Positions 6,464 to 27,542 of a stretch of DNA of 64,000 nt are shown here, one piece after another. Positions within the stretch are counted from its first letter, which is position 1; each line of letters begins with the position of its first letter. The DNA lies in NCBI GenBank assembly GCA_014360895.1, contig JACIWQ010000001.1:16287-80286 (forward strand), given 5' to 3'. Under the pieces are notes generated by a model. It was not told the origin of the DNA. It made no database searches and saw only the letters and a list, made by a program, of their open reading frames with translations. The DNA is from Thermoflexales bacterium. GTDB lineage: Bacteria; Chloroflexota; Anaerolineae; B4-G1; DUEL01. The translations under genes were made by a program, and so were the position numbers.

Positions 6464-6577
6464 TTAGCCCTGTCGCTGCTTATGCTTCGGGTTCTCGCAG
6501 ATGACCCGAATCACGCCCTTGCGACGGATGATTTTGCACTTGGGACAGCGCCGTTTCACAGACGGTGAGACTTTCAC
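6464..6577 (-). CDS. rpmJ: 50S ribosomal protein L36 (Zn-ribbon type)
   Basis: Manual translation gives [37 protein letters not shown] with a C-x2-C-x12-C-x4-H motif. GTG start, preceded by an AGGAGG RBS. Too short for the ORF track. Confidence 0.85.
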
Positions 6578-6719
6578 GTTATCCTCCTGGTCTGAATACG
6601 TTCTTCCCCCCACAATTACACTTCATCGGAAATAGGACGCAGATGAACGCGGACGAGCACAGATTTCCCTAAAAGATACGTGCTGCGCCACCTGGCGCTA
6701 TTCCCGATAAAGTCTATTA

Positions 6720-7145
6720 TCAAGACACTCGGACCAGGGCTTCCCGGGCGCGTCGTTGCGGGATACTGGCCAAGCTCTCTTCTACCTCTTCAGCAGGCCC
6801 CAGAAAGTCAAAAATGCTGATTTCTTCGTTAATCGCGCACTTCTCGGGATCCCAGATTATCATCGTCCGGTCCCGGCTGATTTCAAATTTCTCCCTCTCT
6901 GCCGGGTCTGCATTGTACAGTGTCGGAATCCACCAGAGCGGCACAGATAGCCGTCGACCATCTGTCAGCGCGATGTGCATATATTCTTCGTCAAACCACA
7001 CCTGGTGAATCCGGGCCTCGCGCGGGAAGGTGTAGGCCGAGACCGGATACTGGACCTCGTACTTCTTAACCTGCACCTGTTCTTCGGACGGCTTTCCCTT
7101 TGTAAACATACCACTGTTCCAGTAAATATTCACGATGCTGCTCAA
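6720..7145 (-). CDS. DUF2442-like small protein (TA-like pair partner). The true start is probably internal, near 7073-7109.
   Basis: MHIALTDGRRLSVPLWWIPTL... resembles DUF2442. Lower GC than flanks. Sits in the slot normally occupied by infA. Confidence 0.5.
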   Translation of the reverse strand: MSSIVNIYWNSGMFTKGKPSEEQVQVKKYEVQYPVSAYTFPREARIHQVWFDEEYMHIALTDGRRLSVPLWWIPTLYNADPAEREKFEISRDRTMIIWDPEKCAINEEISIFDFLGPAEEVEESLASIPQRRAREALVRVS

Positions 7146-7353
7146 TGATCCGCAGGGCCCGTTGTAATTCTTCTCTCCTCAGGGCACGTCCGGCACGCGC
7201 CACCTCAATCTCCGGCTCCAACCAGATTTTCGCGTCGTTCCGATCGTCCTGCGTGCCTTTCCCTACATGAACGCTGGCCCGTGCCTCATAGCGGGCATCG
7301 TAACTGTGAAACCAGAAAATCAGCGATCCCTCCTGAAGGACCTTGGGACTCAT
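7066..7353 (-). CDS. DUF4160-like small protein (TA-like pair partner)
   Basis: FWFHSYDARYEARASVHVGKG motif resembles DUF4160, which commonly pairs with DUF2442. Immediately downstream of map. Confidence 0.5.
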   Translation of the reverse strand: MSPKVLQEGSLIFWFHSYDARYEARASVHVGKGTQDDRNDAKIWLEPEIEVARAGRALRREELQRALRIIEQHREYLLEQWYVYKGKAVRRTGAG

Positions 7354-8136
7354 TCAAAGCCCTTTTGCCCAAATATGCCACGGCGTCAGGATTTCCGCCT
7401 CCCCGTCCCGGATCAGAAGGGTGTGTTCAAAGTAGGCCGTCAGTTTGCCGTCCACGGAGACGACCGTCCAGTGGTCGGGCAGGGTCCGTACCCGGTAGTC
7501 GCCCGCCAGGACCATAGTCTCTATGGCGACGGTCATTCCCGACCGCAACAGCGGCCCCCGCCCCGGCTCTCCGTGGTTGGGAATCTGCGGCGGCTCGTGC
7601 ATCTGCCGACCGATGCCGTGGCCGGTGTATTCCCGCACCACGTTGTAGCCCCGGGACTCCACGTAGTTCTGAATGGCGGCGGAGATGTCGCCGACGCGGT
7701 TTCCGGCCCGGGCCCGGGCGATCCCGGCGTAGAGAGCGCCCTCCGTCACCTCCAGCAACCGCCGGGCCTCCGGGCCCACGTCCCCCACCGGCAGGGTGAT
7801 GCCCGCATCGCCATGGTAGCCGTCGTAGATGGCCCCGACGTCTATGCTGATAATGTCCCCTTCTTTCAGGACGCGCGGGCCGGGAATCCCGTGGACCAGT
7901 TCCTCGTTGACCGAAGTGCAGATCGCAGCCGGGAACGGATGCGGACTGCCCGGCGGATAGCCCTTGAAGGACGGGATGCCACCCAGGCGTCGGATCAGTT
8001 CTTCCGCCTTCTGGTTCAACTCCGCCGTGGTGACGCCGGGCCTTACCCACTCCCGCATCCGGTCCAGGACCTCGGCGACGATGCGCCCGGCCCTGCGCAT
8101 TTTTTCAATCTCGCCTGCCGACTTCAGTTGAATCAT
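7354..8136 (-). CDS. map: Methionine aminopeptidase type I
   Basis: 260 aa with MetAP metal-ligand motifs (HGIG..., D..ISIDVG). Confidence 0.93.
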   Translation of the reverse strand: MIQLKSAGEIEKMRRAGRIVAEVLDRMREWVRPGVTTAELNQKAEELIRRLGGIPSFKGYPPGSPHPFPAAICTSVNEELVHGIPGPRVLKEGDIISIDVGAIYDGYHGDAGITLPVGDVGPEARRLLEVTEGALYAGIARARAGNRVGDISAAIQNYVESRGYNVVREYTGHGIGRQMHEPPQIPNHGEPGRGPLLRSGMTVAIETMVLAGDYRVRTLPDHWTVVSVDGKLTAYFEHTLLIRDGEAEILTPWHIWAKGL

Positions 8137-8137
8137 T

Positions 8138-8860
8138 TCACCGCAGAGAACGCGGAGAACGCAGAGATTCCCCCACCTCTCCCGCGCCCCCCACGGTCAG
8201 GGAGCCGCAGGCGCTCTCCACGGCCGCCCGCAGGTCGGCCTGGACGTCTTCTATGGACTGTTCGCCGTCTATCTCCACCAGCAGGCCGACCCGGCGGTAA
8301 TAGTCCACCAGCGGCGCCGTCTGCTCCTGATAGACCTTCAGACGGCGGCGGTGGGCCTCCTCGGTCTCGTCGGGACGCTGGTAGAGTTCGCCGCCGCAGG
8401 CATCGCACACCCCGGCCTTCTTCGGCGGATTGAACAGGGTATGGTAGACGGCCCCACAACTCCGGCAGGTCCACCGGCCCGCCAGACGGGCCAGGGCCAC
8501 CTCCTCCCGCACCCGGATGAAGGCCACCATATCCAGCGCGGTCCCGTTGCCCCGCAGGAGCCGCTCCAGCGCTTCCGCCTGCGCGACGGTGCGCGGGAAG
8601 CCGTCCAGGATGAAACCATTGGTGCAATCCGGGCGGGCAATCCGTTCGGCGACCATGCCGATGGTCACCTCATCGGGCACCAGGTCGCCCCGCTCCATGT
8701 AGGCCCGCGCCTGGCGGCCCAGGTCTGTTCCCTTATCCAGATGCTCCCGGAACAGGTCGCCGCTGGCGACATGCGGGACGCCCAGCGCCTGCGCCAGTTG
8801 CTCCGCCTGCGTCCCCTTGCCCGCTCCGGGCATGCCCAGAAGGACAATGCGACAGCCCAT
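8138..8860 (-). CDS. adk: Adenylate kinase (with Zn-lid CxxC...CxxC). The C-terminus reads through a 9-bp repeat.
   Basis: Start at MGCRIVLLGMPGAGKGTQ (P-loop). LID cysteines CRSCG...CDACG. The tail ...GESLRSPRSLR is encoded by the repeat at 8142-8168. Confidence 0.93.
   Translation of the reverse strand: MGCRIVLLGMPGAGKGTQAEQLAQALGVPHVASGDLFREHLDKGTDLGRQARAYMERGDLVPDEVTIGMVAERIARPDCTNGFILDGFPRTVAQAEALERLLRGNGTALDMVAFIRVREEVALARLAGRWTCRSCGAVYHTLFNPPKKAGVCDACGGELYQRPDETEEAHRRRLKVYQEQTAPLVDYYRRVGLLVEIDGEQSIEDVQADLRAAVESACGSLTVGGAGEVGESLRSPRSLR
8142..8168. repeat. 3 x 9-bp tandem repeat CGCAGAGAA/CGCGGAGAA/CGCAGAGAT. Member of the CGCAGAGAACGC element family.
   Basis: Shares the 14-mer ACCGCAGAGAACGC with 46698-46711. 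Its reverse complement resembles 17876-17907. Confidence 0.8.
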
Positions 8861-8976
8861 AGGCTCACTCCGACTCCCGGGCCAGGTCGGCCGGAGACGT
8901 AATAGCCGCAAACCGCCTGGCAATTACCCGGATGGATTCCAGGATATGTTGCAGAATATCCCGGACCAGTTCCAGG

Positions 8977-9267
8977 TCATACACAAACAGCTTCCTGGTC
9001 AATCCGCTTCTTTAGCAGCGGATTCATCCGCTCCCGGTAGCGAACCACATCTACAGGCCGTTGCAGGAGTTCCTCCAGTTCCTGCTTGATGCCCACCAGC
9101 AGCAGCAAGTCCGGCCGCTCCAGTTCCACCACCACATCCACGTCGCTCTCATCCGTGGCTTCGCCCCGGGCCCAGGAACCGAATATCCCAATCCGGGTGA
9201 TACCGAACTTTTGGGCCCTCTGGTCGCGAAACTGGGCCAGGACGCGCAGGACCTCATCTCGCCTCAT
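8977..9267 (-). CDS. Nucleotidyltransferase (MntA-like, second copy)
   Basis: GIFGSWARGEATDESDVDVVV minimal NTase motif. Start at MRRDEV, within the longer ORF. Confidence 0.7.
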   Translation of the reverse strand: MRRDEVLRVLAQFRDQRAQKFGITRIGIFGSWARGEATDESDVDVVVELERPDLLLLVGIKQELEELLQRPVDVVRYRERMNPLLKKRIDQEAVCV

Positions 9268-9305
9268 CGGACCTACCTTTTCTCTCCCCATAAAAGCCCG
9301 GCCGC

Positions 9306-9653
9306 CTACCCTTCGCCCGATGCAGTGGGAAGCAACGGCTCTACCTTCTCCAGCAAATCCGGGACATCCTTTGTGGCCGTTTTCCAGACCTCTTCCCAAT
9401 CCACAATATCGTAGCCATGAATCAGATGATCTCGCATTCCCGCAATGAGCGACCAAGGTATATCACTATGCTGATCACGAAACTCCCGAGAAAGCCGCTT
9501 GACCGCTTCCCCAATCACCAACAGTTGGTACAATACGGCCGATTGGGTTTTGATGTCGTCCAGGAAGTTCTCCTTTGCCATATCAGCAACGAAGCCCATA
9601 ATGAGACGGGCCGCTCTGGCAATATCTAGCAACGTCACTTCATCCCGATGCAT
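9306..9653 (-). CDS. HEPN-domain toxin (HepT/DUF86)
   Basis: Rx4HxY motif RDHLIHGY. Overlaps the upstream NTase gene by 14 nt. Confidence 0.75.
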   Translation of the reverse strand: MHRDEVTLLDIARAARLIMGFVADMAKENFLDDIKTQSAVLYQLLVIGEAVKRLSREFRDQHSDIPWSLIAGMRDHLIHGYDIVDWEEVWKTATKDVPDLLEKVEPLLPTASGEG

Positions 9654-9972
9654 TCATCTCCCCAGCGCTGGAAAACAGAACTCGGGCCGTTTTCAAGATT
9701 TCCTGACGACGCAACCAGTTAGGACTTCGGAGCAAAGCCCGACGGGTAATCAGGTCAATCCCCCTCTGGAAGAGCCCTTCCAATTCCCGCTGCATCTGGA
9801 TATGTTCTAAAAGTCCCCAATCCGCATCCCGCTCAAAGTCAACCAGGAAATCCAGGTCGCTATCAGGAGAGAAATCCTCCCGCAATGCAGAGCCAAAGAG
9901 AGCCAGTTCGCGGATCCTCCAGCGCCGGCAAAACTGGGCAATTTGGTCATCCGGAACCGGCAAGCTCCTCAT
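9640..9972 (-). CDS. Nucleotidyltransferase antitoxin (MntA-like). Its ATG overlaps the secY stop (ATGA).
   Basis: LFGSALREDFSPDSDLDFLVDF NTase motif. Translationally coupled to secY. Confidence 0.75.
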   Translation of the reverse strand: MRSLPVPDDQIAQFCRRWRIRELALFGSALREDFSPDSDLDFLVDFERDADWGLLEHIQMQRELEGLFQRGIDLITRRALLRSPNWLRRQEILKTARVLFSSAGEMNASG

Positions 9973-11288
9973 CGGATGAATCCCTCATAGTGCCGCATCA
10001 GCAACTGGGCCTCCAGTTGCCGCATGGTATCCACCACGACGCCGACGACGATGAGCAGTCCCGCCGAGGTAATGAGCAGCACCCGGGTGTTCATCAGTAA
10101 CTGGACGATGAAGGGCAGAACGGCGACGCCCCCCAGGAACAGTGCCCCAAACAGAGTGATGCGCTTGTAGATGCCGTTGATGTAGTCCGCCGTCTGTTTG
10201 CCGGGGCGGATGCCCGGGATAAACCCGCCGTACTTCTGCAGGTTCTCCGGCAGGTTCTGCTGCTCCACCAGCACAAAGGTGTAGAAGTACGTGAACCCGA
10301 CGACGGCGGCGAAGTAGAGCACTGCGTAGAAGATGGTGGTGTACCACTCCACGGTGTGCCCGCTGAAGAAATTCATAATGTCCGTCGCCACCCGCGCCAC
10401 GTTCGCGTTGGACGAACCGGCGAAGAACTGGGCAATGACCGCCGGAAGGGTCAACAGGGACTGGGCGAAGATGAGCGGGATCATTCCGGCCATGTTGACC
10501 CGCAGCGGGATGTAGGTGCTGCCGCCGCCGTACATCCGTCGCCCGCGCACCCGCTTGCCGTACTGCACCGGGATGCGCCGCTCCCCTTCCTGAACGTAGA
10601 CGATCACAAAGATCACCAGCGCGGTGATGATGAAGAAGAAGAGCAGGCCCAGGAAGCCATCGCTGGTGTAAATCCGCGCCACGTTGGCCGGCGTCCGGGC
10701 CACAATGCCGCCGAAGATGATGAGCGAGATGCCGTTGCCGATGCCCTGCTCGGAGATCAACTCGCCCAGCCAGATGGCGAACATGGTGCCTGCCGTCATC
10801 GCCACCAGGACCGAGAGAGTCGGCAAGACGAACTCGGCCCGATGGAAGCCGAAGTTAGGCAGGACCGGGCGCGCGGCCGCGCTGTTGAATAATTGCGCCT
10901 GTCCCCAGGCCTGCAACATCCCCAGTGGAATGGTCAGGTAGTACGTCCACTGGTTCAGTTTCCGCCGTCCGGCTTCCCCTTCCTCCTCCGCCAGCCGCTT
11001 CAGCGCCGGGATGACCGGGACCAGCAACTGGATGATGATGGACGCGTTGATGTACGGATAGACCCCGTTGGCCAGCACCGAGTACTCCGCCACCGCGCCG
11101 CCGGAGAGCAGGTCCAGAATGTTGACCAGTTGGGCCGCCCCACCGGTCAGACTGCGCAGGGCCTCCCGGTCAATGCCCGGCACCGGCACGTGAGAGGCCG
11201 CGCGGAAGATGACCAGGATCAGCAGCGTGTAGAACAACCGCCGCCGCAGGTCAGGAAGCCTCAGGGCATCACGTACGGCCTGGATCAT
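9969..11288 (-). CDS. secY: Preprotein translocase subunit SecY
   Basis: 439 aa with 10 TM segments; canonical SecY sequence. Confidence 0.95.
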   Translation of the reverse strand: MIQAVRDALRLPDLRRRLFYTLLILVIFRAASHVPVPGIDREALRSLTGGAAQLVNILDLLSGGAVAEYSVLANGVYPYINASIIIQLLVPVIPALKRLAEEEGEAGRRKLNQWTYYLTIPLGMLQAWGQAQLFNSAAARPVLPNFGFHRAEFVLPTLSVLVAMTAGTMFAIWLGELISEQGIGNGISLIIFGGIVARTPANVARIYTSDGFLGLLFFFIITALVIFVIVYVQEGERRIPVQYGKRVRGRRMYGGGSTYIPLRVNMAGMIPLIFAQSLLTLPAVIAQFFAGSSNANVARVATDIMNFFSGHTVEWYTTIFYAVLYFAAVVGFTYFYTFVLVEQQNLPENLQKYGGFIPGIRPGKQTADYINGIYKRITLFGALFLGGVAVLPFIVQLLMNTRVLLITSAGLLIVVGVVVDTMRQLEAQLLMRHYEGFIR

Positions 11289-11297
11289 TGCGACTCC

Positions 11298-11543
11298 TTA
11301 TGCAGGTATTTCTTCTGGCACGCGCCGATGAATTGGCATCAGGGCTACATTCTCCAGGATCACCTGACGCATGACATCATCCCGTCCAAATCGCTTCAGG
11401 GCATCCAGAATCTCAATCCCTGCCAGACGTCCCTCGGCATCATAGTCGGCTGCGATCCCCTCCGCCAGATGCTGTGTGGTGACTGTTGTCTCCAGGAACC
11501 GAATATACAACGCGTCCACTTCCGGATCATATGTTACTCTCAT
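11298..11543 (-). CDS. DUF2283 small protein (TA-like pair partner)
   Basis: MRVTYDPEVDALYIRF... typical DUF2283 N-terminus. Lower GC. Confidence 0.65.
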   Translation of the reverse strand: MRVTYDPEVDALYIRFLETTVTTQHLAEGIAADYDAEGRLAGIEILDALKRFGRDDVMRQVILENVALMPIHRRVPEEIPA

Positions 11544-11551
11544 AATGCCCC

Positions 11552-11806
11552 CTAAAAATAGTACGCGTACACCGTCACCACGACGATTTCATCAGCCTCT
11601 TCGGCAAAGATGGGTCGCACCTGTTTGGTGGCATAAAATTTGCCGTTCCATTCTTGCCCGAAGGGAAAGTTCTTGCGACACTCCAGCCGTCCTCGCTCTG
11701 CGGGACACCACGAGGCAGTGCGAATCGCCTCTACAACTTCTTCCTCGGTAACTCCCCGATACCGCAACTGCTCTTGGGCGTGCCCGGAAAGACGGATGGG
11801 TTTCAT
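11552..11806 (-). CDS. DUF4258 small protein (TA-like pair partner)
   Basis: MKPIRLSGHAQEQLRYRGVTEEEVVEAI... typical DUF4258. Starts 3 nt after the rplO stop. Confidence 0.65.
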   Translation of the reverse strand: MKPIRLSGHAQEQLRYRGVTEEEVVEAIRTASWCPAERGRLECRKNFPFGQEWNGKFYATKQVRPIFAEEADEIVVVTVYAYYF

Positions 11807-11809
11807 TGC

Positions 11810-12289
11810 CTATCGCGTCCGGTAGCCGCCCCGCTCCCAGGGCAACTCCTCCACGGTGCCGCCCGCGGCCTCAATCTTGGCCCGCGCGCTGGCGGAGAAG
11901 CGGTGGGCCTTCACCGTCAGCGGGACCTTCAACTCCCCGCGCCCCAGGATGACCACCCACTCGTCGGCATCCCGGATCAGGCCGGCATCCGCCAGTTCCT
12001 GCGGAGTGACCACGCTCCCCGGCGCGAACCGGGCCAACCGGTCCACGTTGACCGGCGTGAAGCGGACCCGCCAGGGATCCCGAAAGCCGACGCCCCGCGC
12101 GAAGGGCAGTTTACGGACCAGCGGCAATTGCCCGCCCTCAAAGTACGGTGGGATGCTCCCCCCGCTGCGGGCCTTCTGCCCCTTCGTCCCGCGCCCGCCG
12201 GTCTTGCCCTGACCGGCCGCGATGCCGATCCCCTTTCGCTTGTGGCGCTTCTTAGACCCCTCAGCCGGTTGCAAATCGTGCAGTTTCAT
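11810..12289 (-). CDS. rplO: 50S ribosomal protein L15
   Basis: Gly/Lys-rich N-terminus ([13 protein letters not shown]); L15 family. Confidence 0.95.
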
Positions 12290-12480
12290 CCCTCAACCTC
12301 TTCCACCTTCAACATGTGCTGGACCTTGGCCACCATCCCCCGGATGGCCGGCGTATCGGCCTTCTCCACCGTCTGATGGAGCCGCCGCAGGCCCAGCGCC
12401 CGGACCGTCGCCTTCTGGTCCCTGGAATACCCGATTGGGCTGCGAACCAGGGTGATACGGAGAACTTTCCGCTTTTCCAT
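12286..12480 (-). CDS. rpmD: 50S ribosomal protein L30
   Basis: [18 protein letters not shown]...TPAIRGMV. Start placed at the ATG with a GAGGGAG RBS rather than the upstream GTG. Confidence 0.9.
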
Positions 12481-12548
12481 TGCCTGCTCCCTCGCCACCA
12501 GTCTATCCGTTTACCGGTCTACCAGTTTACCAAATTCCCAGATACCCC

Positions 12549-13085
12549 TTACCGCCCGCGCATCCAGAACGGCATGACCCGGGTCTCCGGCAGGCCCCGC
12601 TCGCGCGCCAGGTCCTCGTAGGAGCGCAGTTGCTTCAGGGCCTCCATGGTGGCCTTCACCACGTTGAGCATGCTGGAACTGCCCATGGATTTGGTCAGCA
12701 CGTCGTGGATGCCAGCCGCCTCCAGAACGGCGCGCACGCCGCCGCCCGCGATGACGCCGGTACCCGGCGAAGCGGGCTTAATCAGCACCCGGGCACCACT
12801 GCACTCGCCAATTGCATCGTGCGGGATGGTCCGCCCCACCAGTGGGACGGTGATCATAGAGGCCCGCGCCCGCTCCGTGGCCTTGCGGATGGCGTCCGGG
12901 ACGGCGCGCGCTTTGCCCACGCCGATGCCGACGCGGCCGTTGTGGTCGCCGACGACAGCTGTCACCCGAAAGGCGAACCGGCGCCCGCCCTTGATGACTT
13001 TGGCGACCCGCTTGATCTCCACGACCCGCTCGTCCAATTCTACTGGCGCCGTGGGCTCCAGTTCAAATTCCTGATCCAGGTCCAT
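12549..13085 (-). CDS. rpsE: 30S ribosomal protein S5
   Basis: Canonical S5 ([20 protein letters not shown]). Confidence 0.95.
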
Positions 13086-13118
13086 TCGCTCCTCCGTAGT
13101 CCGTGCTCCGTACTCCGT

Positions 13119-13487
13119 TTAGAAGTCCAAACCACCTTCGCGGGCGGCGTCGGCCAGGGCCTTCACCCGACCGTGGTACTTGTATCCCGCCCGGTCAAAG
13201 GCCACCTTGGTCACTCCCCGGGCCAGGGCGCGGGCCGCCAGAACCTTCCCCACCACCCGGGCCTGCTCCGTCTTCTTCAGCCCGGCAATCTGTTCGCGGA
13301 CTTCCGGGTCCAGGGTGGAAGCGGAGACCAGCGTATGCCCCACCGTATCGTCAATCACCTGGGCGTAGATATGCCGCAGGCTGCGAAAGACGTTCAGGCG
13401 CGGACGCTCGGGCGTACCGAACACCTTCTTGCGCACATGCTTGCGTCGGCGCAGTCGTCCTAACCGGCGATCTTTTTCTGCCATCAT
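13119..13487 (-). CDS. rplR: 50S ribosomal protein L18
   Basis: L18 family sequence. Confidence 0.95.
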
Positions 13488-13502
13488 CCTCGCTCCCGAA
13501 TC

Positions 13503-14072: not shown

Positions 14073-14082
14073 CCCGTCCTCC

Positions 14083-14692: not shown

Positions 14693-14784
14693 ACCTGTAT
14701 CTGCTCCACCAGAGATGGTAATCGGAACTGAGAACTTACTGCTTATCCAAACTGCTCGTCAAACTCGGTCAGAATCCGCCGAAT

Positions 14785-14982
14785 TTACTCTTCGGAAACC
14801 GGGAATGTCTGCCCCGCTAATGCTTCCTGCCAACCCTGGCGAAAACTTGCCACAACAGGCTTCAGGGTGACACTTTCCCGAAACAGGCGAATCAGTTGAA
14901 GCAAATTCGGCCAGTACTCTCGGGGCGTCTCCCGAATCTCCTGAACAATTTGTTCTTCGGAAGTCAGAACGTAAACACTCAT
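14785..14982 (-). CDS. Small hypothetical protein (65 aa) inserted between rplE and rpsN
   Basis: Lower-GC ORF with no recognisable family. It occupies a spacer that is normally only a few nt long. Confidence 0.4.
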   Translation of the reverse strand: MSVYVLTSEEQIVQEIRETPREYWPNLLQLIRLFRESVTLKPVVASFRQGWQEALAGQTFPVSEE

Positions 14983-15545: not shown

Positions 15546-15551
15546 CCTTTA

Positions 15552-15609
15552 CAAGATGCAAGATGGCAAGATGCAAGATGGCAAGATGCAAGATGGCAAG
15601 ATGCAAGAG
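15552..15609. repeat. Tandem array (CAAGATGCAAGATGG, 15-bp unit = 7+8) x ~3.5 in the rplX-rplE spacer
   Basis: caagatg caagatgg repeated. Generates spurious ORFs in all frames (HLAILHLAIL, DARWQDARWQ, MARCKMARCK). Confidence 0.9.
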
Positions 15610-15933: not shown

Positions 15934-15991
15934 TCTTCACCTCACGAACTACGAAATACGGAGTACGGAGTGTTGCGTATTCCGTATTCCG

Positions 15992-16363
15992 TTAGAGCAC
16001 CTCTGGTGCCAGCGAAATGATTTTCATAAAGCCCTTATCCCGCAACTCCCGGGCGACGGGCCCGAAGATGCGGGTGCCGCGCGGGTTGACGCCCGTCGCG
16101 TCCAGCAGCACCGCGGCGTTGTCATCAAAGCGGATGGTGGAGCCGTCGGGGCGCCGGTACTCTTTGGCCGTGCGGACGATGACCGCTTTAACCACGTCCC
16201 CCTTCTTCACCGACGCGTTGGGTGTGGCCTGCTTGACCGTCGCCACGATGACGTCTCCGACGTACCCGTACCGCCGCTTGGAGCCGCCCATCACCCGAAT
16301 GCACAACAGTTCTTTCGCCCCGGTGTTATCCGCTACGGTCAAACGGGTCTCCTGCTGGATCAT
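15992..16363 (-). CDS. rplN: 50S ribosomal protein L14
   Basis: [18 protein letters not shown] canonical L14. Confidence 0.95.
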
Positions 16364-17292: not shown

Positions 17293-17559
17293 TTAAAGCG
17301 CCCGATAGACTTCTCTGCAATGACGAATATACATCACCGTAATCCGCCGCGCCTGCGTATCCACCTCGTATACAATGCGATAATCACCCACGCGAAGCCT
17401 GTACAACTGCTGTGAACCCTCCAACTTCTCCACACCTTGAGGAAAAGGGGTCTCTCCCAATTCCTCAATGCGCCTCCACACACGCTCAACGACCGACTTG
17501 GGCAAACGACGAAAATCTTTATGAACAGACGGCTTGAATTCGACGCTATAAGAGCTCAT
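17293..17559 (-). CDS. RelE/ParE-family toxin
   Basis: 88 aa ending ...QARRITVMYIRHCREVYRAL. Overlaps the upstream antitoxin gene by 14 nt. Lower GC. Confidence 0.75.
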   Translation of the reverse strand: MSSYSVEFKPSVHKDFRRLPKSVVERVWRRIEELGETPFPQGVEKLEGSQQLYRLRVGDYRIVYEVDTQARRITVMYIRHCREVYRAL

Positions 17560-17737
17560 CTTCTTTTAGCCGCCGTTTCATCTCCTCCAAACTGATCGGT
17601 TCCTCGTCCCGACGCTCCGCGATGACAGCCAAATCATGCAAATCTTCCAGCAGACGGCGATAACGTTTCAGGGAAAGAATCACGCCGATCTTTTTACCTC
17701 TCTCGTTGACCACATATCGCTCTCGCACAGTTTCCAT
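17546..17737 (-). CDS. Phd/YefM-like antitoxin
   Basis: 63 aa small acidic protein immediately upstream of the RelE/ParE gene. Confidence 0.6.
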   Translation of the reverse strand: METVRERYVVNERGKKIGVILSLKRYRRLLEDLHDLAVIAERRDEEPISLEEMKRRLKEDELL

Positions 17738-17875
17738 AAGACCCCTCTATCCAACGACTATCGTCCTGCCAGGTTATATTTCAGCCTTTCTCAAAACCCG
17801 TCAACCGTTTGCCGAGGCGCCGGGAATTCTCCCCATGGTCAGCCGGCTTCCGGCGAGATTGACAACCAGAAGAAG

Positions 17876-17907
17876 AATCCGCGTATCTCCGCGTTTATCT
17901 GCGCCCC
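17876..17907. repeat. gaatccgcgtatctccgcgtttatctgcgccc, a TCCGCGT-type repeat element
   Basis: Shares the 12-mer tccgcgtttatc with 46766-46799. Related to the reverse complement of 8142-8168. Confidence 0.7.
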
Positions 17908-17928
17908 CGGCCGTTTTCCGCCCAGGCT

Positions 17929-20219: not shown

Positions 20220-20220
20220 C

Positions 20221-20523
20221 TTAGCCCTCCAGCACTTCCAGTTCCGGGATTCGTTCTCCCTCGGCGAGGGTGACCACCGCCTTCTTCCAGGCCGGAATCC
20301 GCACCACCCGACGGCGTCCCCACCGACGGACGGCCTTGGCCGGCATGTTGGCGATGTTCACCGCCTCCACGTGGACCCGATAAATCGTCTCCACCGCCTG
20401 CTTGACCAGGGCCTTGTTCGCCCGCCGGTCCACCTCAAAGGTGTACTGCCGTCGGCGGAGCGAGGTGGCCCTCTGGGTCTTCTCCGTTAAAACCGGTCGT
20501 TTGATGACCTCGTAGATGTGCAT
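20221..20523 (-). CDS. rplW: 50S ribosomal protein L23
   Basis: Canonical L23. Confidence 0.95.
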
Positions 20524-20527
20524 GGCC

Positions 20528-21148
20528 CTACCCCAGAATGGACTCTATCACCAGCAGGGCGCCCAGCGGCATGACCACCTTCTCGTACTGCAACAGGTCG
20601 CGGATGTTCAGGTAACTGGCGTGGAGCGCCTTGACCTTTGGCAGGTTGCGCACCGACTTTTCCACCGTCTCGTTGCGGCCGGGCAGGAGAATCAGGGCAT
20701 CCTCCCCCACGTTCAGCCGGGAGAGGACCTCCCGCATTTCCCGCGTCTTGGGCTCGGGCAACTCCAGCCGGTCCACCACCACAATCTGTTGCTGGCCGGC
20801 CTTCACGCTGAGGGCGCTGCGCAGGGCGGCCCGGCGCATCTTCTTGGGCATCCGCTGTTCGTAACTGCGCGGCTTGGGCCCGTGGGCGATGCCGCCGCCG
20901 ACGAAAATGGGCGCATTCCGGCTGCCGTGGCGGGCCCGACCCGTCCCCTTTTGCCGGTACCATTTGGCCGTGGTCCGGTTCACCTCGCCGCGCGTCTTGG
21001 TCTTGTGGGTGCCCAGGCGGGCATTCGCCAGTTGCCGCACCAGCGCCTGGTGCATCAACGGCACGTTGATCGGCGCCTCAAAGATGTCGGGCCGCAATTC
21101 TATCTCATCCACTTGCTGCCCGCTCATGTTCCAGACGGGAACCTTCAT
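20528..21148 (-). CDS. rplD: 50S ribosomal protein L4
   Basis: Canonical L4. Confidence 0.95.
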   Translation of the reverse strand: MKVPVWNMSGQQVDEIELRPDIFEAPINVPLMHQALVRQLANARLGTHKTKTRGEVNRTTAKWYRQKGTGRARHGSRNAPIFVGGGIAHGPKPRSYEQRMPKKMRRAALRSALSVKAGQQQIVVVDRLELPEPKTREMREVLSRLNVGEDALILLPGRNETVEKSVRNLPKVKALHASYLNIRDLLQYEKVVMPLGALLVIESILG

Positions 21149-21191
21149 TGTCTACCCCCTACTCCACACTCCGTACTGCGCACTCCGTTCC

Positions 21192-21890
21192 CTACCCTTT
21201 GCGCAATTCCTTCGTCTTCCGGGCCTGTTTGATCATCACCAGGCTCCCCCGGTGGCCCGGGACGGCGCCGCGCACCGCCAGCAGGTTCCGCTCCGGGTCC
21301 ACCATGACCACTTCCAGGTTCTGGACGGTCACCCGGACGCCACCCATGCGGCCGGGCATCCGCAGCCCCTTCAGCACCCGGCCCGGCGTCGTGGTGGCGC
21401 CGATGGAGCCGTGACGGCGCTCCCGGTCCGATTGACCGTGGGTCTTGGGCTGACGGTTGAAACCATGGCGCTTGATGCCACCGGCAAACCCGCGCCCTTT
21501 GGACGTGCCCACCACGTCCACCCGGTCGCCGACCTGGAAGACATCCACGGTGATTTTCTCGCCTTCAGCGGGCGCCTCTTCCGGCTTCACGCGGAACTCC
21601 CGCAGACGGCGCAGCGGACCGGGTATCCCCTTCAGCACCCGTCGACGCGGGTGGGCAGAGTCCGTTTTCAGCAGGCCCAGGTGGCCCAACTGCCCGCGCG
21701 TCAGCCGAGAAGGCTTCACCGGCTCAAAGCCCAACTGGACCGCGCTGTAGCCATCCCGCTCCGGCGTTTTGACCTGGGTGACCCAACAGGGACCGGCCTC
21801 AATCACCGTGACCGGAATCGCCTCTCCTTCGGCGGTAAACAACGTGGTCATTCCGACCTTTTTACCCAGAATTCCCTTCACGATACTCAC
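21192..21890 (-). CDS. rplC: 50S ribosomal protein L3
   Basis: Canonical L3. GTG start with a GGAGGA RBS. Confidence 0.95.
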   Translation of the reverse strand: MSIVKGILGKKVGMTTLFTAEGEAIPVTVIEAGPCWVTQVKTPERDGYSAVQLGFEPVKPSRLTRGQLGHLGLLKTDSAHPRRRVLKGIPGPLRRLREFRVKPEEAPAEGEKITVDVFQVGDRVDVVGTSKGRGFAGGIKRHGFNRQPKTHGQSDRERRHGSIGATTTPGRVLKGLRMPGRMGGVRVTVQNLEVVMVDPERNLLAVRGAVPGHRGSLVMIKQARKTKELRKG

Positions 21891-22040
21891 TCCTCCATGG
21901 GACTGTCAGCCCTGGGACAGGCTGCATCATCCCGGTGGTCAGGATGGAAGGAAACAAGAATACGAGGAGACAAGGATGCAAGGGGTAGAGGGGTGGCACG
22001 CTCCAACCCCTGCCTACTTGCCCACTTGTTTCCTTGTCTA

Positions 22041-22349
22041 CTACAACTTAATTTCTATGTCCACGCCTGCAGGCAGGTTGAGCCGCATCAGCGCATCTAT
22101 GGTCTTGTTATCCGGCTCCAGGACGTCTATCACCCGCTTGTGGGTCCGGATTTCAAAGTGCTCGTGGGAGTCCTTGTCAATGAAGGTGGACCGGCGCACG
22201 GTGAAGCGCTCTATCTGGGTCGGCAACGGGATAGGGCCGACCACGGTCGCTCCCGTGCGCTCGGCCGCCTCCACGATGCGCCGGGCGGACTCGTCCAACA
22301 CGCGATGATCGTACGCCTTCAGGCGGATACGGATTCTTTGCTTGGCCAT
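22041..22349 (-). CDS. rpsJ: 30S ribosomal protein S10
   Basis: Canonical S10. Confidence 0.95.
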
Positions 22350-22368
22350 GTCGGTAGGCTGGTGACGG

Positions 22369-23586
22369 TTAGTCCAGAATCTTGGTGATGACGCCAGCGC
22401 CGACGGTCAGCCCCCCCTCGCGGATGGCGAAGCGGGAGCCCTGCTCCACCGCGACCGGCTCAATCAGTTCCACCATCAGGTTGACGTCGTCGCCGGGCAT
22501 GACCATTTCCACGCCCTCGGGCAGGGTGATGGTCCCCGTCACGTCGGTGGTGCGGATGTAGAACTGCGGCCGGTAGCCGGAGAAGAAGGCCTTATGCCGC
22601 CCACCTTCCTCCTTGCGGAGGACGTAGACCTGGGCCTCAAACTTCCGGTGCGGCGTGATGGTCCCCGGTGCCGCGACGACCATGCCACGGGCCACCTCGT
22701 CCTTGCTCACACCGCGCAGGAGCAGGCCCGCGTTGTCGCCCGCCACCACCTTGTCCAGTTTCTTGCGGAACATCTCCATATCGGTGACGACGGTCTTGAT
22801 GGGCCGGTCGCGCAGGCCGACGATCTCCACCTCGCTCATCGGGACCAGCGTGCCCCGCTCCACCCGGCCGGTGACGACGGTGCCGCGTCCCTTAATGCTG
22901 AAGACGTCCTCAATGGGCATCAGGAACGGCTTATCCTCCTCGCGCACCGGGGTGGGGATGTACTCATCCACCACGCGCATCAGTTCCCAGATGCACTGGT
23001 ATTCCGGCGCGTTCGGGTCGGTGCTGGTGGACTGGAGGGCCTTCAGGGCGGAGCCGCGTACGATAGGCGTCTCGTCGCCCGGGAAGCCGTAGGAGTTGAG
23101 CAATTCCCGCAGTTCCAGTTCCACCAGTTCCAGCAGTTCCTCGTCCTCCATCAGGTCCACCTTGTTCAGGAAGACCACGATGGCCGGGACGTTCACCTGG
23201 CGGGCCAGGAGGACGTGCTCCCGGGTCTGGGGCATCGGGCCGTCCGCCGCGGAGACGACCAGGATGGCCCCATCCATCTGGGCCGCGCCAGTGATCATGT
23301 TCTTGATGTAGTCCCGGTGGCCGGGGCAGTCCACGTGGGCATAGTGCCGCTTCTCGGTCTCATACTCCACGTGGGCGATGGCGACGGTCAAGATTTTCGT
23401 CGCATCGCGGCGGAACATCTTCGCGTCCGCCTTGGCGACCTCGTCGTAGGACTTGTATTCCGCCATGCCCCGCATGGCCAGCACCTTGGTAATGGCCGCC
23501 GTCAGCGTGGTCTTGCCATGGTCAATATGCCCGATGGTCCCCACGTTTACGTGCGGCTTCTCACGGACGAACTTTGGCTTTGCCAT
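22369..23586 (-). CDS. tuf: Elongation factor Tu
   Basis: 405 aa with GHVDHGKTT G-domain. Confidence 0.97.
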
Positions 23587-23734
23587 CTCTCCTCTCTCCT
23601 TTCGTCAGATGATTCACTGATTCAGAGATTTGTCGCAACCGATTCACAGACAGGTGGGAAAATAGTTCGGGCCGGAGTTATCCCCCGGCCCGAACGGCAC
23701 TGGAGAACAACTCCCAACTGAGTGAGAGCGTCTT

Positions 23735-25810
23735 CTACCAGCCACGACCACCATATAAGATGGCCTCCATCTGCTCTTTATCCACCGGTGCGTAGTGGTG
23801 GAATTCCATCGTGAACGTGCCCCGTCCCTGGGTCAGGGAGCGGACGTCGGTCGCATAGCCGAACATCCGGGCCAGGGGCACCATCGCCCGGACGGCGCGC
23901 ACGCCGCCCGGCCGCTGCTCCATCCCCTCAATGGCGGCCCCCCGACTGTTCAGGTCGCCGATGACCTCTCCCAGGGACGCCTCGGGCACCACCACCTCCG
24001 TCCGCATCACCGGCTCCAGCAGCACCGGCTTCGCCTCCTCCACCGCCCGCTTGAAGGCCATAGACCCGGCCACTTTGAAGGCCAGTTCGGTGGAGGTCTC
24101 CGCGTCCCAGGCCCCGTCCAGCAGGGTCACCTGCACATCTACCAGCGGGTAGCCCGCCAGGACGCCGCTCTCCATCGCCTCGCGGCAGCCTTCCTCCACC
24201 GCCTTCACGAAAGGCGGCGGCAGAAGTTTCCCCCGACTGGGGTCCTGAAACCGGAATCCGCCTCCCGAGGGCAGCGGCTCCACCGCCAGGCGCACCCGGG
24301 CATATTGGAGGTTCCCGCTGATGGGCCGGTCAAACACCGCCTCCGCTTCCGCCCGGGCGGTCACCGTCTCCCGATAGGCCACCCGGGGGCGCCCCACCCG
24401 TCCTTCCACGCGAAACTCCCGCACCAACCGGTCCACCAGAATCTCCAGGTGGAGTTCCCCCATCCCGGCTAGGATGGTCTGCCCGGTGTTTTCGTCGGTG
24501 CGGACGACGAAGGTGGGGTCTTCCTCCGCCAGCCGCCGCAGCGCCTGATGTAGTTGCTCCTGGTCCGCCGCCGTCTTGGGCTCAATCGCCACAAAGACCA
24601 CCGGCTCCGGGAACACGATGGGCTCCAGGATGATGGGAGCCGTCGGTGGGCAAAGCGTGTCGCCGGTGAACGTGGCCTTCAGGCCGACCACGCCGCCGAT
24701 GTCCCCCGCCGTCAGTTCGGGAATCTCCTCCCGGTCCCGGGCGAACATGCGCAGGAGTTTAGCAACGCGCTCTGTCTGCCCCTTGCCGGGGTTGTAGACG
24801 GAGGAGCCGACCTTGAGTTTGCCCGAGTAGACCCGCACGTAGACCAGACGGCCCACGTAGGGGTCGCTGGCCACCTTGAAGGCCAGGGCCGCCAGCGGCG
24901 CGTTGACATCGGCGGGCCGGGTCTCCGGTTCCCCGGTGCGGGGGTTTTCCCCTTCCACCGGCGGGATGTCCAGGGGGGAGGGCAGGTAGTCCACGATGGC
25001 GTCCAGCAGGGGCTGCACACCCTTGTTGCGCAGGGCGGAGCCGCAGAGCACCGGGACCAGCGTCCCGGCGATGGTGGCCCGCCGCAGGGCCCGCCGCAGG
25101 TCCGCCGCCGGAATCTCTTCGCCCTCCAGGTAGCGGGTCATCAGGTCGTCGTCCGTCTCCACAATCTGCTCCAGGACCTGCTCCCGCAGCACCTGGACCT
25201 CGTCGGCCAGTTCCGGGGGGATGGGCTCTATCACCGGCTCCTTGCCCAACTCGTCCACCCAGATCACCGCGTGCATCTCCAGCAGGTCCACCACGCCCCG
25301 GAAGGAGAGTTCCCGGCCGATGGGCCACTGGAGCATCACCGGGTTGGCACCCAGTCGCTCCCGGATGGTCTCGGTGGCGTGGGCGAAGTCGGCGCCCAGT
25401 TTGTCCATCTTGTTAATGAAAGCGATGAGGGGCACGCCAAAGGAGCGGGCCTGCCGCCAGACGGTCTCCGACTGGGGCTCCACCCCGGCGACAGCGTCAA
25501 AGACCACCACCCCTCCGTCCAGGACGCGCAGGCTCCGCTGGACCTCGGCGGTAAAATCTATGTGCCCCGGCGTATCTATGATGTTAATCTGATGGTCCCG
25601 CCAGAAGCAGGTGACGGCGGCGGCGGTGATGGTGATGCCCCGTTCCCGCTCCTGGACCATCCAGTCGGTGACGGTGGTCCCTTCGTCCACCGTCCCCATC
25701 CGATGGGTTCTACCCGTGTAGAAGAGAATCCGCTCGGTGGTAGTGGTTTTGCCCGCGTCTATGTGGGCGATGATCCCGATATTGCGAACCCGCTCCAGTG
25801 GCCATGCCAT
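23735..25810 (-). CDS. fusA: Elongation factor G
   Basis: 691 aa with [10 protein letters not shown]-domain. Confidence 0.97.
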
Positions 25811-25855
25811 CGCATCTGTTCCTCCGGGTCGCCCGGGCGCCCACCGGGACGGGTG

Positions 25856-26326
25856 CTACCACCGGTAGTGAGCAAACGCCTGGTTGGCCTCGGCCATCCT
25901 GTGGGTATCTTCCCGTTTCTTGATGGCGGCGCCGGTCTTGTTGACCGCGTCCATCAGTTCGGCGGCCAGTTTTTCGGCCATGGAGCGCCCGGAGCGATGG
26001 CGAGCGGCCTCCAGAATCCAGCGGATGGCCAAACTGGTCTGGCGGTGAGGCGGCACCTCCACCGGTACCTGGTAGGTCGCCCCACCGACGCGTCGGGGTT
26101 TGACCTCCAGAATCGGGGAGACGTTGCGCACCGCCTCTTCCAGCACTTCCAGCGCCGGTCGCCGCGTCCGCTCCTGGATAATGTCCATCGCCTGATACAT
26201 AATGCGGGTCGCCAGGCTCTTCTTGCCATCTTTCATAATTTTGTTGATGAACTTGGCGACCAGGACGCTGTTATAGCGCAGGTCCGGCTCAATTTCTCGT
26301 TTCGGTGGACGATATCGTCTGGGCAT
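25856..26326 (-). CDS. rpsG: 30S ribosomal protein S7
   Basis: Canonical S7. Confidence 0.95.
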
Positions 26327-26361
26327 TCTTCCTCACCGATCCTCCAGCCTGCTGTTTATCC

Positions 26362-26709
26362 CTACGCCTCGGGGGCTGGACGATTGACCCGAAGCAACCG
26401 TCCCTGGAGAGCAGGTTCTGCCTCAATTGCCCGGTGCACGCGCCGGGCTAACTCTTCAAAGTCTGGGTCAAAAGAGCATACAATAATGCCAGAGTGATCC
26501 GGGTTATCCCTGTGCAGGCGAATAAAGTGTCTCCGATTCATCGTCAGAATTGCCCGTCCCTCCTGACGGGCAAACAGGAGAACCGCTTCATCGGACATTG
26601 CCTGTCCCGTCTGACCGGCCTCCAACATTGTCAACACATCGTGCCCCAGTTTTCGCAGCTCCTCCACAACCGGCATCGGGAAATTCTCGTTTGCATATAA
26701 CCGGGCCAT
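26362..26709 (-). CDS. DUF5615 (PIN-like/Mut7-C-like) putative toxin
   Basis: 115 aa. Paired with the upstream DUF433 gene (1-nt gap). Lower GC. Confidence 0.65.
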   Translation of the reverse strand: MARLYANENFPMPVVEELRKLGHDVLTMLEAGQTGQAMSDEAVLLFARQEGRAILTMNRRHFIRLHRDNPDHSGIIVCSFDPDFEELARRVHRAIEAEPALQGRLLRVNRPAPEA

Positions 26710-26710
26710 A

Positions 26711-27055
26711 TCAGGCCGCCTCGTGCTCCCGAATTTGCTCTTCTATCTCTTCCCGATGGGCCCGATAATACGCCCAGGCATTTGCCAGGTCTTCCGCCCT
26801 CAGCGTCGGGTAGGCTCGCAGAAGGTCCGCCTCGCTGGCCCCCAGGCGCCGGGCCTGCACCAGCAGCCAGACCGGGATTCGGGTGCGGACGATACACGGC
26901 TCTCCTCCGCAGACATCCGGCGTACTCTCAATGCCAGGAAATGCCTCGCCCAGGTCTCGCACTACCCATTGCAGCACCTGGGCCTTTTCTGCCCGGGTCA
27001 TCTGCGCCAGAAGCCGCTCAGCTTCCCGCAATGGGCTGGTCAAAGTGCCAATCAT
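26711..27055 (-). CDS. DUF433 putative antitoxin
   Basis: GGEPCIVRTRIPVWLLV... DUF433 core. The start is trimmed to MIGTLTSP so that it does not overlap rpsL. Confidence 0.65.
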   Translation of the reverse strand: MIGTLTSPLREAERLLAQMTRAEKAQVLQWVVRDLGEAFPGIESTPDVCGGEPCIVRTRIPVWLLVQARRLGASEADLLRAYPTLRAEDLANAWAYYRAHREEIEEQIREHEAA

Positions 27056-27080
27056 ACTTCCCGAACCCGGAGCCAAACAC

Positions 27081-27542
27081 CTACTTCTTCCCTGGCTTCG
27101 CGCCGGGCTTGGCCGGGCCTTTGCCGCCCTTGCCGGCTTTGGTGCCGTACTTGGAGCGTTGCTGCGCGCGACCATCCACGCCCGCGGCATCCAGCGCGCC
27201 CCGGATGATGTGATAGCGGACGCCGGGCAGGTCCTTCACGCGGCCGCCGCGCACCAGCACTACCGAGTGCTCCTGCAGGTTGTGCCCTTCGCCAGGGATG
27301 TAGGCCGTGATCTCAATGCCGTTGGTCAGCCGCACGCGGGCGATTTTGCGCAGCGCGGAGTTGGGCTTCTTCGGCGTCATCGTCCGCACCTGGGTGCAGA
27401 CGCCCCGCTTCTGCGGCGCGCCCTTCGGCATGCGGAAGCGCCGCTGCTTGTACGAGTTAAAGATGTACTGCAGCGCCGGCGCCTTGGTCTTCTTTTCCTT
27501 CGGCTTTCGCCCTTTGCGAACCAGTTGATTGATCGTCGGCAT
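27081..27542 (-). CDS. rpsL: 30S ribosomal protein S12, with a 15-aa in-frame insertion and a Gly/Lys-rich C-terminal tail
   Basis: [13 protein letters not shown]...PQKRGVCT...[10 protein letters not shown]. The insertion [15 protein letters not shown] lies between PAL and KGAP. The tail is [17 protein letters not shown]. Confidence 0.93.

Follow-up and report, generated by a model that had tools for sequence, protein, structure and literature searches.

The ribosomal-protein superoperon of a Thermoflexales bacterium (Chloroflexota), contained in a 64,000-nucleotide (nt) stretch of contig JACIWQ010000001.1 (positions 16,287–80,286; here called the window), carries small genes of toxin–antitoxin (TA) families at six of its internal junctions, and we consider it likely that these junctions serve as cassette slots for small TA modules in this lineage. 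The str–S10–spc cluster is a textbook case of an invariant, tightly packed essential operon and is commonly used as a block of phylogenetic markers.

The superoperon lies on the minus strand between positions 27542 (rpsL) and 6464 (rpmJ). In the direction of transcription, its backbone reads rpsL, rpsG, fusA, tuf, rpsJ, rplC-D-W-B, rpsS, rplV, rpsC, rplP, rpmC, rpsQ, rplN-X-E, rpsN, rpsH, rplF, rplR, rpsE, rpmD, rplO, secY, adk, map and rpmJ. Twelve additional small genes, all co-oriented with it, are distributed over the junctions rpsL–rpsG (slot 1), rpsC–rplP (slot 2), rplE–rpsN (slot 3), rplO–secY (slot 4), secY–adk (slot 5) and map–rpmJ (slot 6), tiling the region on one strand as described in the original prediction, an earlier reading of this sequence that proposed six such cassettes. 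Upstream, a gene of about 1,300 amino acids (aa) that ends 72 nt before rpsL is taken here as putative rpoB from the rpoB–rpsL order in relatives; downstream of rpmJ, rpsM-rpsK-rpsD-rpoA-rplQ-truA-rplM-rpsI continue to position 1808 with no insertions. The infA gene is absent between map and rpmJ (6464–8136) in this clade and its nearest relatives, a point at which many other sampled phyla differ, and adk or map is missing at this position from some relatives, such as L004 and L006 (handles beginning with L denote loci of the comparison set).

In a Pfam scan, 11 of the 12 cassette genes scored above the gathering threshold, in agreement with the families first assigned to them; the exception was a 65-aa gene, orf65. 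The cassettes make up five full-length pairs (DUF433/DUF5615, Phd/ParE, DUF4258/DUF2283, MntA1/HepT1 and DUF4160/DUF2442) and two orphan antitoxins (RelN-like orf65 and MntA2), each of which has a toxin deletion scar on its 3′ side. Several of the cassette genes lie within 0–9 nt of an essential gene or share an ATGA overlap with it, and a Shine–Dalgarno sequence of its own precedes 7 of the 12. Their mean GC content is 0.543 (range 0.49–0.63) and their mean GC content at third codon positions (GC3) is 0.597 (n = 12), compared with 0.640 and 0.816 in the backbone (n = 37; Mann–Whitney p = 2e-6 for GC and 3e-7 for GC3). The low GC claimed for every cassette therefore holds on average (0.54 versus 0.64), but the backbone is at about 64% rather than 66%, and DUF433 (0.63) and MntA2 (0.59) are the least distinct and not clearly low.

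Slot occupancy within the clade and beyond

Comparison loci came from several searches. A species-level scan with RplP as the query and one genome per species gave 80 loci, and a metagenome scan with SecY returned the close relatives L095 (96%) and L082 (94%) together with 77 loci at 51–70% SecY identity. The RplN of the window, which is identical across the clade, occurs in 143 blocks, and its look-up gave ten loci of 15–20 kb (L163–L172); look-ups of DUF5615 homologues added L179 and L180. Exact-protein look-ups of RpsL and DUF4258 returned the source sample alone. The closest species-level relative, L001 (RplP 99% identical; DNA 91% identical over 2.5 kb), has an orf65 homologue. It also carries, upstream of rplP where the window has Phd/ParE, an element of about 314 bp (1–314) with G/C-rich palindromes and 16-nt terminal inverted repeats (gcactaaagtaaaatc / gattttactttagtgc), and a similar G/C-rich repeat is found at the other end of the contig (2990–3152). 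The element looks like a miniature inverted-repeat transposable element (MITE) that breaks assemblies.

The 14 clade contigs share about 97% identity in their backbone proteins and 87–95% in their backbone DNA, which suggests several species of one genus-level group. The 28 junctions of the backbone behave very differently in these contigs. Twenty are short and near-invariant, two (fusA–tuf and rpsJ–rplC) vary moderately with no identified insert, and only six vary on the scale of cassettes: rpsL–rpsG from 19 to 754 nt, rpsC–rplP from 259 to 1315 nt, rplE–rpsN from 15 to 915 nt, rplO–secY from 54 to 521 nt, secY–adk from 35 to 2195 nt and map–rpmJ from 611 to 1645 nt. The remaining non-slot junctions span about −4 to 150 nt. 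Every gene called in the L163–L172 loci is on the operon strand, and minus-strand open reading frames (ORFs) in the slots look like shadow ORFs.

Cassette content at these positions changes among close relatives. The rpsL–rpsG slot holds a 101-aa gene, DUF2283, DUF433 and DUF5615 in L179 and Phd, ParE, DUF433 and DUF5615 in L180; in L179, a PIN pair lies between rpoB and rpsL as well. At rpsC–rplP, the clade carries Phd/ParE, a HicB-like gene with Phd/ParE, a PIN gene with a 74-aa partner, that pair with HicB and HicA, or remnants only, and at rplE–rpsN various subsets of a 108-aa protein (with a weak barnase/RelE-like match), DUF2283 and an orf65 homologue. The rplO–secY slot contains DUF4258 and DUF2283, DUF2283 alone or an empty heptamer-repeat spacer, and the secY–adk slot contains MntA with HepT, MntA alone, MntA with a 372-aa ATPase and a DUF3226 protein, or a 35-nt scar. 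Occupants of map–rpmJ are DUF433 with DUF5615, DUF4160 with DUF2442 and a YgiT-type zinc-finger gene or, in L095, DUF2442, a DUF433 fragment, a 211-aa gene and a YgiT-type zinc-finger gene. The slots thus hold variable accessory cargo at fixed positions between core genes of related genomes, the pattern by which a hotspot is recognised. The 211-aa protein of L095 (14128–14763), which lies between the DUF433 fragment and the zinc-finger gene, has no match in Pfam, NCBIfam or PADLOC.

Outside the clade the arrangement is rare. The next relatives, L002, L004, L006 and L007 (RplP 76–84%), lack the cassettes, and all six of their corresponding junctions are short (2–127 nt). No homologue of any cassette protein was found in the superoperon of the 79 other species-level loci, where the few extra ORFs of any kind include a hydrolase, an IS110 transposase and a response regulator. 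One of the 77 distant metagenome loci (SecY 51–70%) has a TA pair in the superoperon, the single such case among about 155 other loci. This pair, in L096 (Chloroflexota; SecY 65%), is DUF4160/DUF2442-like by sequence motifs, with no Pfam scan, and sits at rplB–rpsS (2176–2736). Because neither the next relatives nor other phyla have these insertions, they are not ancestral to the phylum; neither of the two outcomes that the original prediction had named as fatal, small ORFs outside TA families or the same insertions throughout the phylum, was observed.

Toxin loss, scars and the age of the cassettes

Slot 5 holds the most complex cassette in the window. MntA1 (9640–9972, minus strand; 110 aa; PF01909 NTP_transf_2, E = 4.1e-14), a predicted nucleotidyltransferase antitoxin, begins on the secY stop codon in the ATGA overlap reported earlier. 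It has the GSX10DXD motif as GSALREDFSPDSDLD, and it matches the PADLOC model PDC-S09 (E = 2e-22). It overlaps by 14 nt HepT1 (9306–9653, minus strand; 115 aa; PF01934 HepT-like, E = 6.8e-27), a predicted HEPN RNase toxin with the RX4HXY motif RDHLIHGY. The next gene, MntA2 (8977–9267, minus strand; 96 aa; NTP_transf_2, E = 1.2e-15), also has GSX10DXD and is 82–85% identical to the MntA directly after secY in L082 and L095. Between MntA2 and adk lies a 116-nt spacer (8861–8976, minus strand) in which DNA alignment to the intact 127-aa HepT2 of L095 reveals about 85 nt of the 5′ end and about 30 nt of the 3′ end of HepT, with an internal deletion of about 275 nt that removed the catalytic motif. 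The DNA alignment was needed for this identification, as the 36-aa remnant peptide alone has no Pfam match. In L082, HepT2 is split by a frameshift. Because the spacer preserves both ends of HepT2, the MntA–HepT–MntA arrangement, correctly named as to its families, is not a single cassette but two predicted modules, an intact MntA1–HepT1 and MntA2–ΔHepT2.

None of the 13 clade contigs compared carries HepT1, and among the contigs sampled only the window has the MntA1–HepT1 pair. The homologues closest to it, 75–82% identical, occur in other Chloroflexota, co-oriented 2 nt after rex (L175–L178) or 16 nt before nuo genes (L173); the pair is a later addition to the secY–adk slot. As in the type VII HepT–MntA system, MntA with GSX10DXD lies upstream of, and overlaps, HepT with RX4HXY. 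Unlike that system, the window module is fused to the secY stop codon, has a second copy that lacks its toxin, and stays below the NCBIfam equivalog cut-off of 60 bits (HepT, 35.8; MntA1, 38.9; MntA2, 49.5). We therefore place these proteins, by their predicted domains, in the wider HEPN–MNT family outside the curated equivalog, with toxicity and AMPylation as predicted roles.

The same slot has different cargo in three relatives, a 372-aa AAA ATPase with a DUF3226 protein (L165, 16742–18507; L170, 14255–16009; L171, 14183–15937). In PADLOC the ATPase matches AbiLi/PDC-M38A (E = 5e-56) and the DUF3226 protein matches PDC-M38B/AriB (E = 1e-12), so the slots also accept a recognised candidate defence system. 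The pair is a candidate for phage defence inside the spc operon.

Slot 3 holds orf65 (14785–14982, minus strand), described at first as an orphan. It indeed has no Pfam match, but it resembles a C-terminally truncated RelN-like antitoxin of a family whose norm is 72 aa. Its match to the NCBIfam model NF050107 (RelN; E = 3.9e-6, 27.4 bits) does not reach the cut-off of 70 and involves the C-terminal part alone; longer homologues score better (L001, E = 1.6e-9; L082, E = 1.2e-8) at 35–38 bits, also under the cut-off. Full-length 72-aa homologues overlap by 11 nt a gene of 119–127 aa with a faint RelE (PF06296) match. This RelE-like partner begins MPNDPRQVQVEFTPEFKRNLRAL and ends QIRRIVSEFEQ in L183, with KIRQIMKEFDE as the counterpart in L182. 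In the window, the 42 nt that follow the orf65 stop codon (14743–14784, minus strand) correspond to the last 13 codons of the toxin, and L001 retains instead the first 22 toxin codons, MPSESSRVRVEFTPEFKRNLRA, up to a stop. As one contig keeps the 3′ end of the toxin gene and the other its 5′ end, orf65 is a putative antitoxin whose RelE-like toxin was deleted. A full RelN-like/RelE-like pair of the orf65 family lies between ftsZ and nrdR in L183, again as a closely joined cassette in the orientation of its neighbours.

Partner states were counted in 13 contigs with the roles predicted for each pair. Both partners were often intact. An antitoxin without an intact toxin was seen in about 20 cases, and an intact toxin without its antitoxin in none. 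The antitoxin-only states comprise three contigs with DUF2283 by itself, five with MntA by itself, three in which Phd accompanies a frameshifted ParE and five with a member of the orf65 family, together with DUF2442 alone, HicB alone and a second DUF2283 alone. Such an asymmetry is what active toxins would produce and is indirect evidence that the modules may be working or were so recently.

Several slots that look empty are scars left by the deletion of a cassette. The 35-nt secY–adk junction of L163, L164 and L168 reads TGCAGCGGGATGCCGTCCGGGAGTCGGAGTAAACT, in which the opening 12 nt of MntA2 run directly into the final ~20 nt of HepT2, so its emptiness is secondary. Among the eight contigs with a full rplO–secY cassette (28 pairs), the DNA identity of the cassette tracks that of rplO plus secY (r = 0.73). 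Relative to the window, this cassette is 81–86% identical and its flanks 90–94%, and the Phd/ParE region is 76–79% identical compared with 93% in its flanks. Together, the scars and the correlation argue that the insertions are old in the clade rather than recent arrivals, and they point to cassettes that were present in the clade ancestor, descended mostly vertically, evolved faster than the backbone and were repeatedly lost. The expectation of strain-specific, recent insertions did not survive the gene-order comparison: most slots are occupied across the genus-level clade by old cassettes that are turning over. Because most slots are occupied clade-wide and divergence tracks the backbone, low GC is weak evidence for recent transfer; it may persist through the composition of a mobile TA gene pool, or through weaker codon selection than that on ribosomal genes.

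The intact pairs and candidate expression signals

In slot 4, DUF4258, a predicted toxin (11552–11806, minus strand; 84 aa; PF14076, E = 4.1e-6, a marginal 27.4 bits against a cut-off of 25), starts 3 nt past the rplO stop codon. After a gap of 8 nt follows DUF2283, a predicted antitoxin (11298–11543, minus strand; 81 aa; PF10049, E = 1.4e-17, 64.1 bits), whose stop codon overlaps the Shine–Dalgarno sequence of secY (TAAGGAG). Both the 3-nt spacing and a secY ribosome-binding site lying within DUF2283 had been noted from the sequence and are correct. DUF4258 is intact in eight clade contigs, frameshifted in one and deleted in two. Of the 13 contigs that extend over the slot, 11 carry DUF2283; three contigs have lost or broken DUF4258 and kept DUF2283, and the reverse was never seen. 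Work on Synechocystis lists DUF4258 as a predicted toxin and DUF433 as a recurrent antitoxin of PIN toxins (PMC4963859); we found no open-access paper that names both DUF4258 and DUF2283.

The pair in slot 6 corresponds to a characterized system, the DUF4160/DUF2442 dhiTA TA system of Dickeya (PMC8198452). The DhiT-like toxin DUF4160 (7066–7353, minus strand; 95 aa; PF13711, E = 2.6e-10, 40.8 bits) starts 0 nt past the map stop codon and overlaps by 44 nt the DhiA-like antitoxin DUF2442 (6720–7109, minus strand; 129 aa; PF10387, E = 1.7e-11, 44.6 bits), the call for which agrees with that in L081. The window pair has both domains of DhiTA of Dickeya dadantii (PMC8198452), with the toxin gene first and the genes overlapping, and differs from it in the length of the overlap (44 versus 3 nt) and in its position between map and rpmJ, flush with the map stop. 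DUF2442 occurs without DUF4160 in L095. The 142-nt spacer between DUF2442 and rpmJ (6578–6719, minus strand) is unexplained as a scar, a promoter or an RNA; its derivation from the YgiT-type zinc-finger gene of L095 and L166 was considered and dropped, because the alignment beyond DUF2442 is unreliable.

In slot 1, the antitoxin-like DUF433 (26711–27055, minus strand; 114 aa; PF04255, E = 6.2e-21, 74.4 bits) starts 25 nt past the rpsL stop codon, in agreement with the gene call in L162. DUF5615, a PIN-like, toxin-like gene (26362–26709, minus strand; 115 aa; PF18480, E = 2e-23, 82.8 bits), follows 1 nt behind and ends 35 nt before rpsG, so both Pfam domains of a DUF433/DUF5615 pair are present with the antitoxin gene first. 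DUF5615 homologues that are 84–89% identical occupy the same rpsL–rpsG slot in L179 and L180. Alignment A1 shows ANENFP and LT(L/M)NR(K/R)HF in the window protein and in 12 homologues at the positions where L167, the sole canonical sequence compared, has DENLP and LTLDTDF. On the evidence of that one canonical sequence, the expected acidic PIN-like site appears to be replaced (N/R for Asp) in a well-conserved DUF5615 subfamily. That the window DUF5615 had become catalytically dead through decay was rejected, as these residues are a conserved feature of the entire subfamily.

Slot 2 begins with a 191-nt spacer after rpsC (17738–17928, minus strand) that could not be accounted for as a scar, a promoter or a known RNA; L095 has a HicB-like gene in the same slot. 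A promoter scan of this spacer found none, and a combination visible by eye (TTGACG with AAATAT or TATAAC) fails the criteria of the scan. The Phd/RelB-type antitoxin that follows (17546–17737, minus strand; 63 aa) matches PF18506 RelB-like (E = 4.8e-8, 33.1 bits against a cut-off of 27) and scores 25.2 bits against PhdYeFM, under the cut-off of 29.8; the L095 counterpart is 81% identical. It lies upstream of, and overlaps by 14 nt, a ParE/RelE-family toxin gene (17293–17559, minus strand; 88 aa; PF05016 ParE_toxin, E = 8.1e-11, 42.8 bits against 23) that is full length (profile positions 1–89 of 89) and ends 24 nt before rplP. ParE is intact in the window, L095 and L165 and frameshifted in L167 and L170–172.

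A consensus scan placed a promoter-like site with 10 of 12 matches (TTGACT, 17 nt, TAAAAT, with TG) just upstream of rpsL (27594–27622, minus strand), which is a candidate promoter for rpsL, DUF433/DUF5615, rpsG and fusA. Terminator-like hairpins occur at chance level, with none of note inside the cassettes and one strong hairpin in the fusA–tuf spacer. In the long spacers, Rfam detected neither a ribosomal leader nor any other RNA family, its only match in the window being a tRNA (55363–55437). Native operon spacers are filled by tandem repeats of period 7 (for example the plus-strand units GATGCGT ×8.4, AAACGTG ×5.3 and CAAGATG ×7.7), at 3434–3492, 5992–6028, 13092–13118, 15552–15608 and 15957–15992, and CGGAGTA-like units on the coding strand recur in many of these spacers; in L170 and L171, a GATAAGC repeat makes up the empty rplO–secY slot.

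If the six junctions are cassette slots, as we favour, the cassettes would lack a transcription unit of their own and would be read through from ribosomal-protein promoters, with translation by their own Shine–Dalgarno sequences or by coupling. They would have entered the common ancestor of the clade and then passed mostly by vertical inheritance, with further cassettes stacked into the same slots over time. Decay would follow a fixed order that starts with frameshift or deletion of the toxin, passes through a stage in which the antitoxin is left and ends in a short in-frame scar. Retention could have two causes. One would be addiction, in which loss of the antitoxin is lethal while the toxin is active; the other would be a positional barrier, in which only precise deletions spare the flanking essential genes and their ribosome-binding sites.

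Several points weigh against this reading. Near-duplicate contigs (L163 = L164 = L168; L170 is close to L171) reduce the independent sample for the partner counts from 13 to about 9. The toxin and antitoxin roles of DUF4258/DUF2283, and of the 108-aa protein with DUF2283, are predictions, and the window DUF5615 subfamily, without acidic residues, may not be a nuclease toxin. Read-through and translational coupling are deduced from spacing and gene anatomy, and the 191-nt rpsC–Phd and 142-nt DUF2442–rpmJ spacers could hold cassette promoters or other signals that a simple scan misses. Finally, other junctions have similar spacer lengths and yet are not used in this way.

Competing readings and wider meaning

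On one rival reading, these Chloroflexota genomes would be rich in TA modules and promoter-less cassettes would insert co-directionally behind any gene. The superoperon would then not be special; it would offer many co-directional junctions and be the region that was sampled and compared. The positions of the nearest MntA–HepT homologues, behind rex or ahead of nuo genes, and of the RelN-like/RelE-like pair between ftsZ and nrdR are as this would predict, and they suggest that embedding in operons is a general habit of these bacteria. A VapC/DUF2281 pair behind uvrA in the window itself also fits this reading. The VapC/DUF2281 pair (46087–46673, minus strand; PIN, E = 1.4e-17; GC3 0.60–0.64) is directly downstream of uvrA and co-oriented with it, and is the sole TA module recognised in the window outside the superoperon slots. 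The distribution is nevertheless uneven, with six sites in about 21 kb (6464–27542) against one in the other ~43 kb, where the unbroken part of the alpha operon is counted (rough binomial p of about 0.007). Moreover, the same six junctions are reused and stacked across the clade and the other 22 show no variation on the scale of cassettes. Non-specific embedding is thus a possible explanation, though not the one that we would expect to hold.

It is doubtful, though conceivable, that near-identical ribosomal genes act as homology arms through which related species exchange cassettes as alleles of a slot by homologous recombination instead of inheriting them vertically. Contigs with 95–97% backbone identity differ at two to four slots and in both directions (L082 versus L166; L163 versus L170), and the extra cassettes stacked in the rpsL–rpsG slot of L179 and L180 would also fit. 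Cassette identity, however, follows flank identity, as the correlation at rplO–secY shows, and most of the differences can be explained by deletions whose scars are visible.

A functional role for the position is unlikely on present evidence. In such a scheme, a stop in ribosomal-protein transcription, through starvation, the stringent response or phage shut-off, would let labile antitoxins decay and free RNase toxins (HepT, ParE/RelE and PIN-like) to arrest the cell, so that the modules would sense a shut-off and bring about dormancy or abortive infection. Tight joining to essential genes, the lack of a recognisable promoter of their own in most cassettes and the AbiLi/PDC-M38-like ATPase with its DUF3226 partner in L165, L170 and L171 are all consistent with it, as is the finding that an intact toxin never occurs without its antitoxin, which implies active toxins. 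Frequent toxin decay (frameshifted ParE; deleted HepT2, RelE-like toxin and DUF4258) argues against strong selection for toxin function, however, and cassette content varies among close relatives. The 'safe harbour' and abortive-infection roles first suggested for the superoperon are inferences from anatomy. We regard as quite unlikely the stronger proposal that the slots are a dedicated, heritable set for TA and abortive-infection modules, promoter-less such that host transcription shut-off by phage or starvation would release the toxins. If it were true, immunity or dormancy modules would be wired to the machinery of core gene expression in a new way, and integration hotspots within an essential operon would form a new class.

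An assembly or binning artefact that misjoined small genes to ribosomal genes is scarcely credible: repeats do cut the L001 contig short at either end, but the arrangement appears in an 80-kb NCBI contig of a metagenome-assembled genome (MAG) and, gene for gene, in Logan contigs of SRR11866724 (though perhaps from the same reads), recurs with variations in more than 12 related contigs from other ENA, JGI and NCBI samples made with different assemblers, and has single-base-precise, in-frame junctions.

Known defence hotspots lie between transcription units and often have integrases or tRNA attachment sites. Like hotspots for defence or TA genes that are flanked by core genes, the slots described here have variable cargo at fixed, core-gene-bounded positions that differs among close relatives. 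Unlike them, they are intercistronic junctions of one essential, highly expressed operon, with co-oriented cargo joined within 0–35 nt, and no mobility gene or integrase is present among the genes called in the clade loci. Chromosomal integron arrays offer another likeness, in that small, promoter-less, co-oriented cassettes rich in TA pairs depend on an upstream promoter, as would be the case here; they differ in that the superoperon has no integrase, no room for attC and six dispersed sites rather than one array. The idea of integron-like cassettes was rejected on two grounds: the genes called in the clade loci include no integrase, and in four of the six cassettes the distance to the following essential gene is 9–35 nt, which holds just a Shine–Dalgarno sequence and is too short for attC. 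Of the longer spacers at slot ends, two (92 and 116 nt) are scars left by toxin deletion and that of 142 nt is unexplained. In Escherichia coli, the mazEF pair is located downstream of relA and is co-transcribed with this core gene. The window cassettes resemble mazEF in being TA pairs directly behind housekeeping genes, with which they would be expressed, and differ in that mazEF is one module at the end of an operon, whereas up to seven modules lie inside the superoperon, upstream of essential genes that depend on read-through. We found no description of TA modules inside ribosomal-protein operons in the open-access literature searched. The family of each module is known or predicted, and the arrangement itself is secure; what appears to be novel is the placement inside an essential ribosomal operon.

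These findings call for caution in synteny-based annotation and in the concatenation of ribosomal proteins from Chloroflexota MAGs, in which contigs can break at repeats as in L001. They also indicate that the superoperon of this lineage can hold as many as seven selfish or defensive modules; its slots are reused, cassettes are stacked in them and erosion begins with the toxin, which provides a natural time series of TA birth and decay. A testable idea that follows is that embedding among essential genes and behind ribosomal promoters may stabilise TA or abortive-infection systems, or wire them to the expression of the operon.

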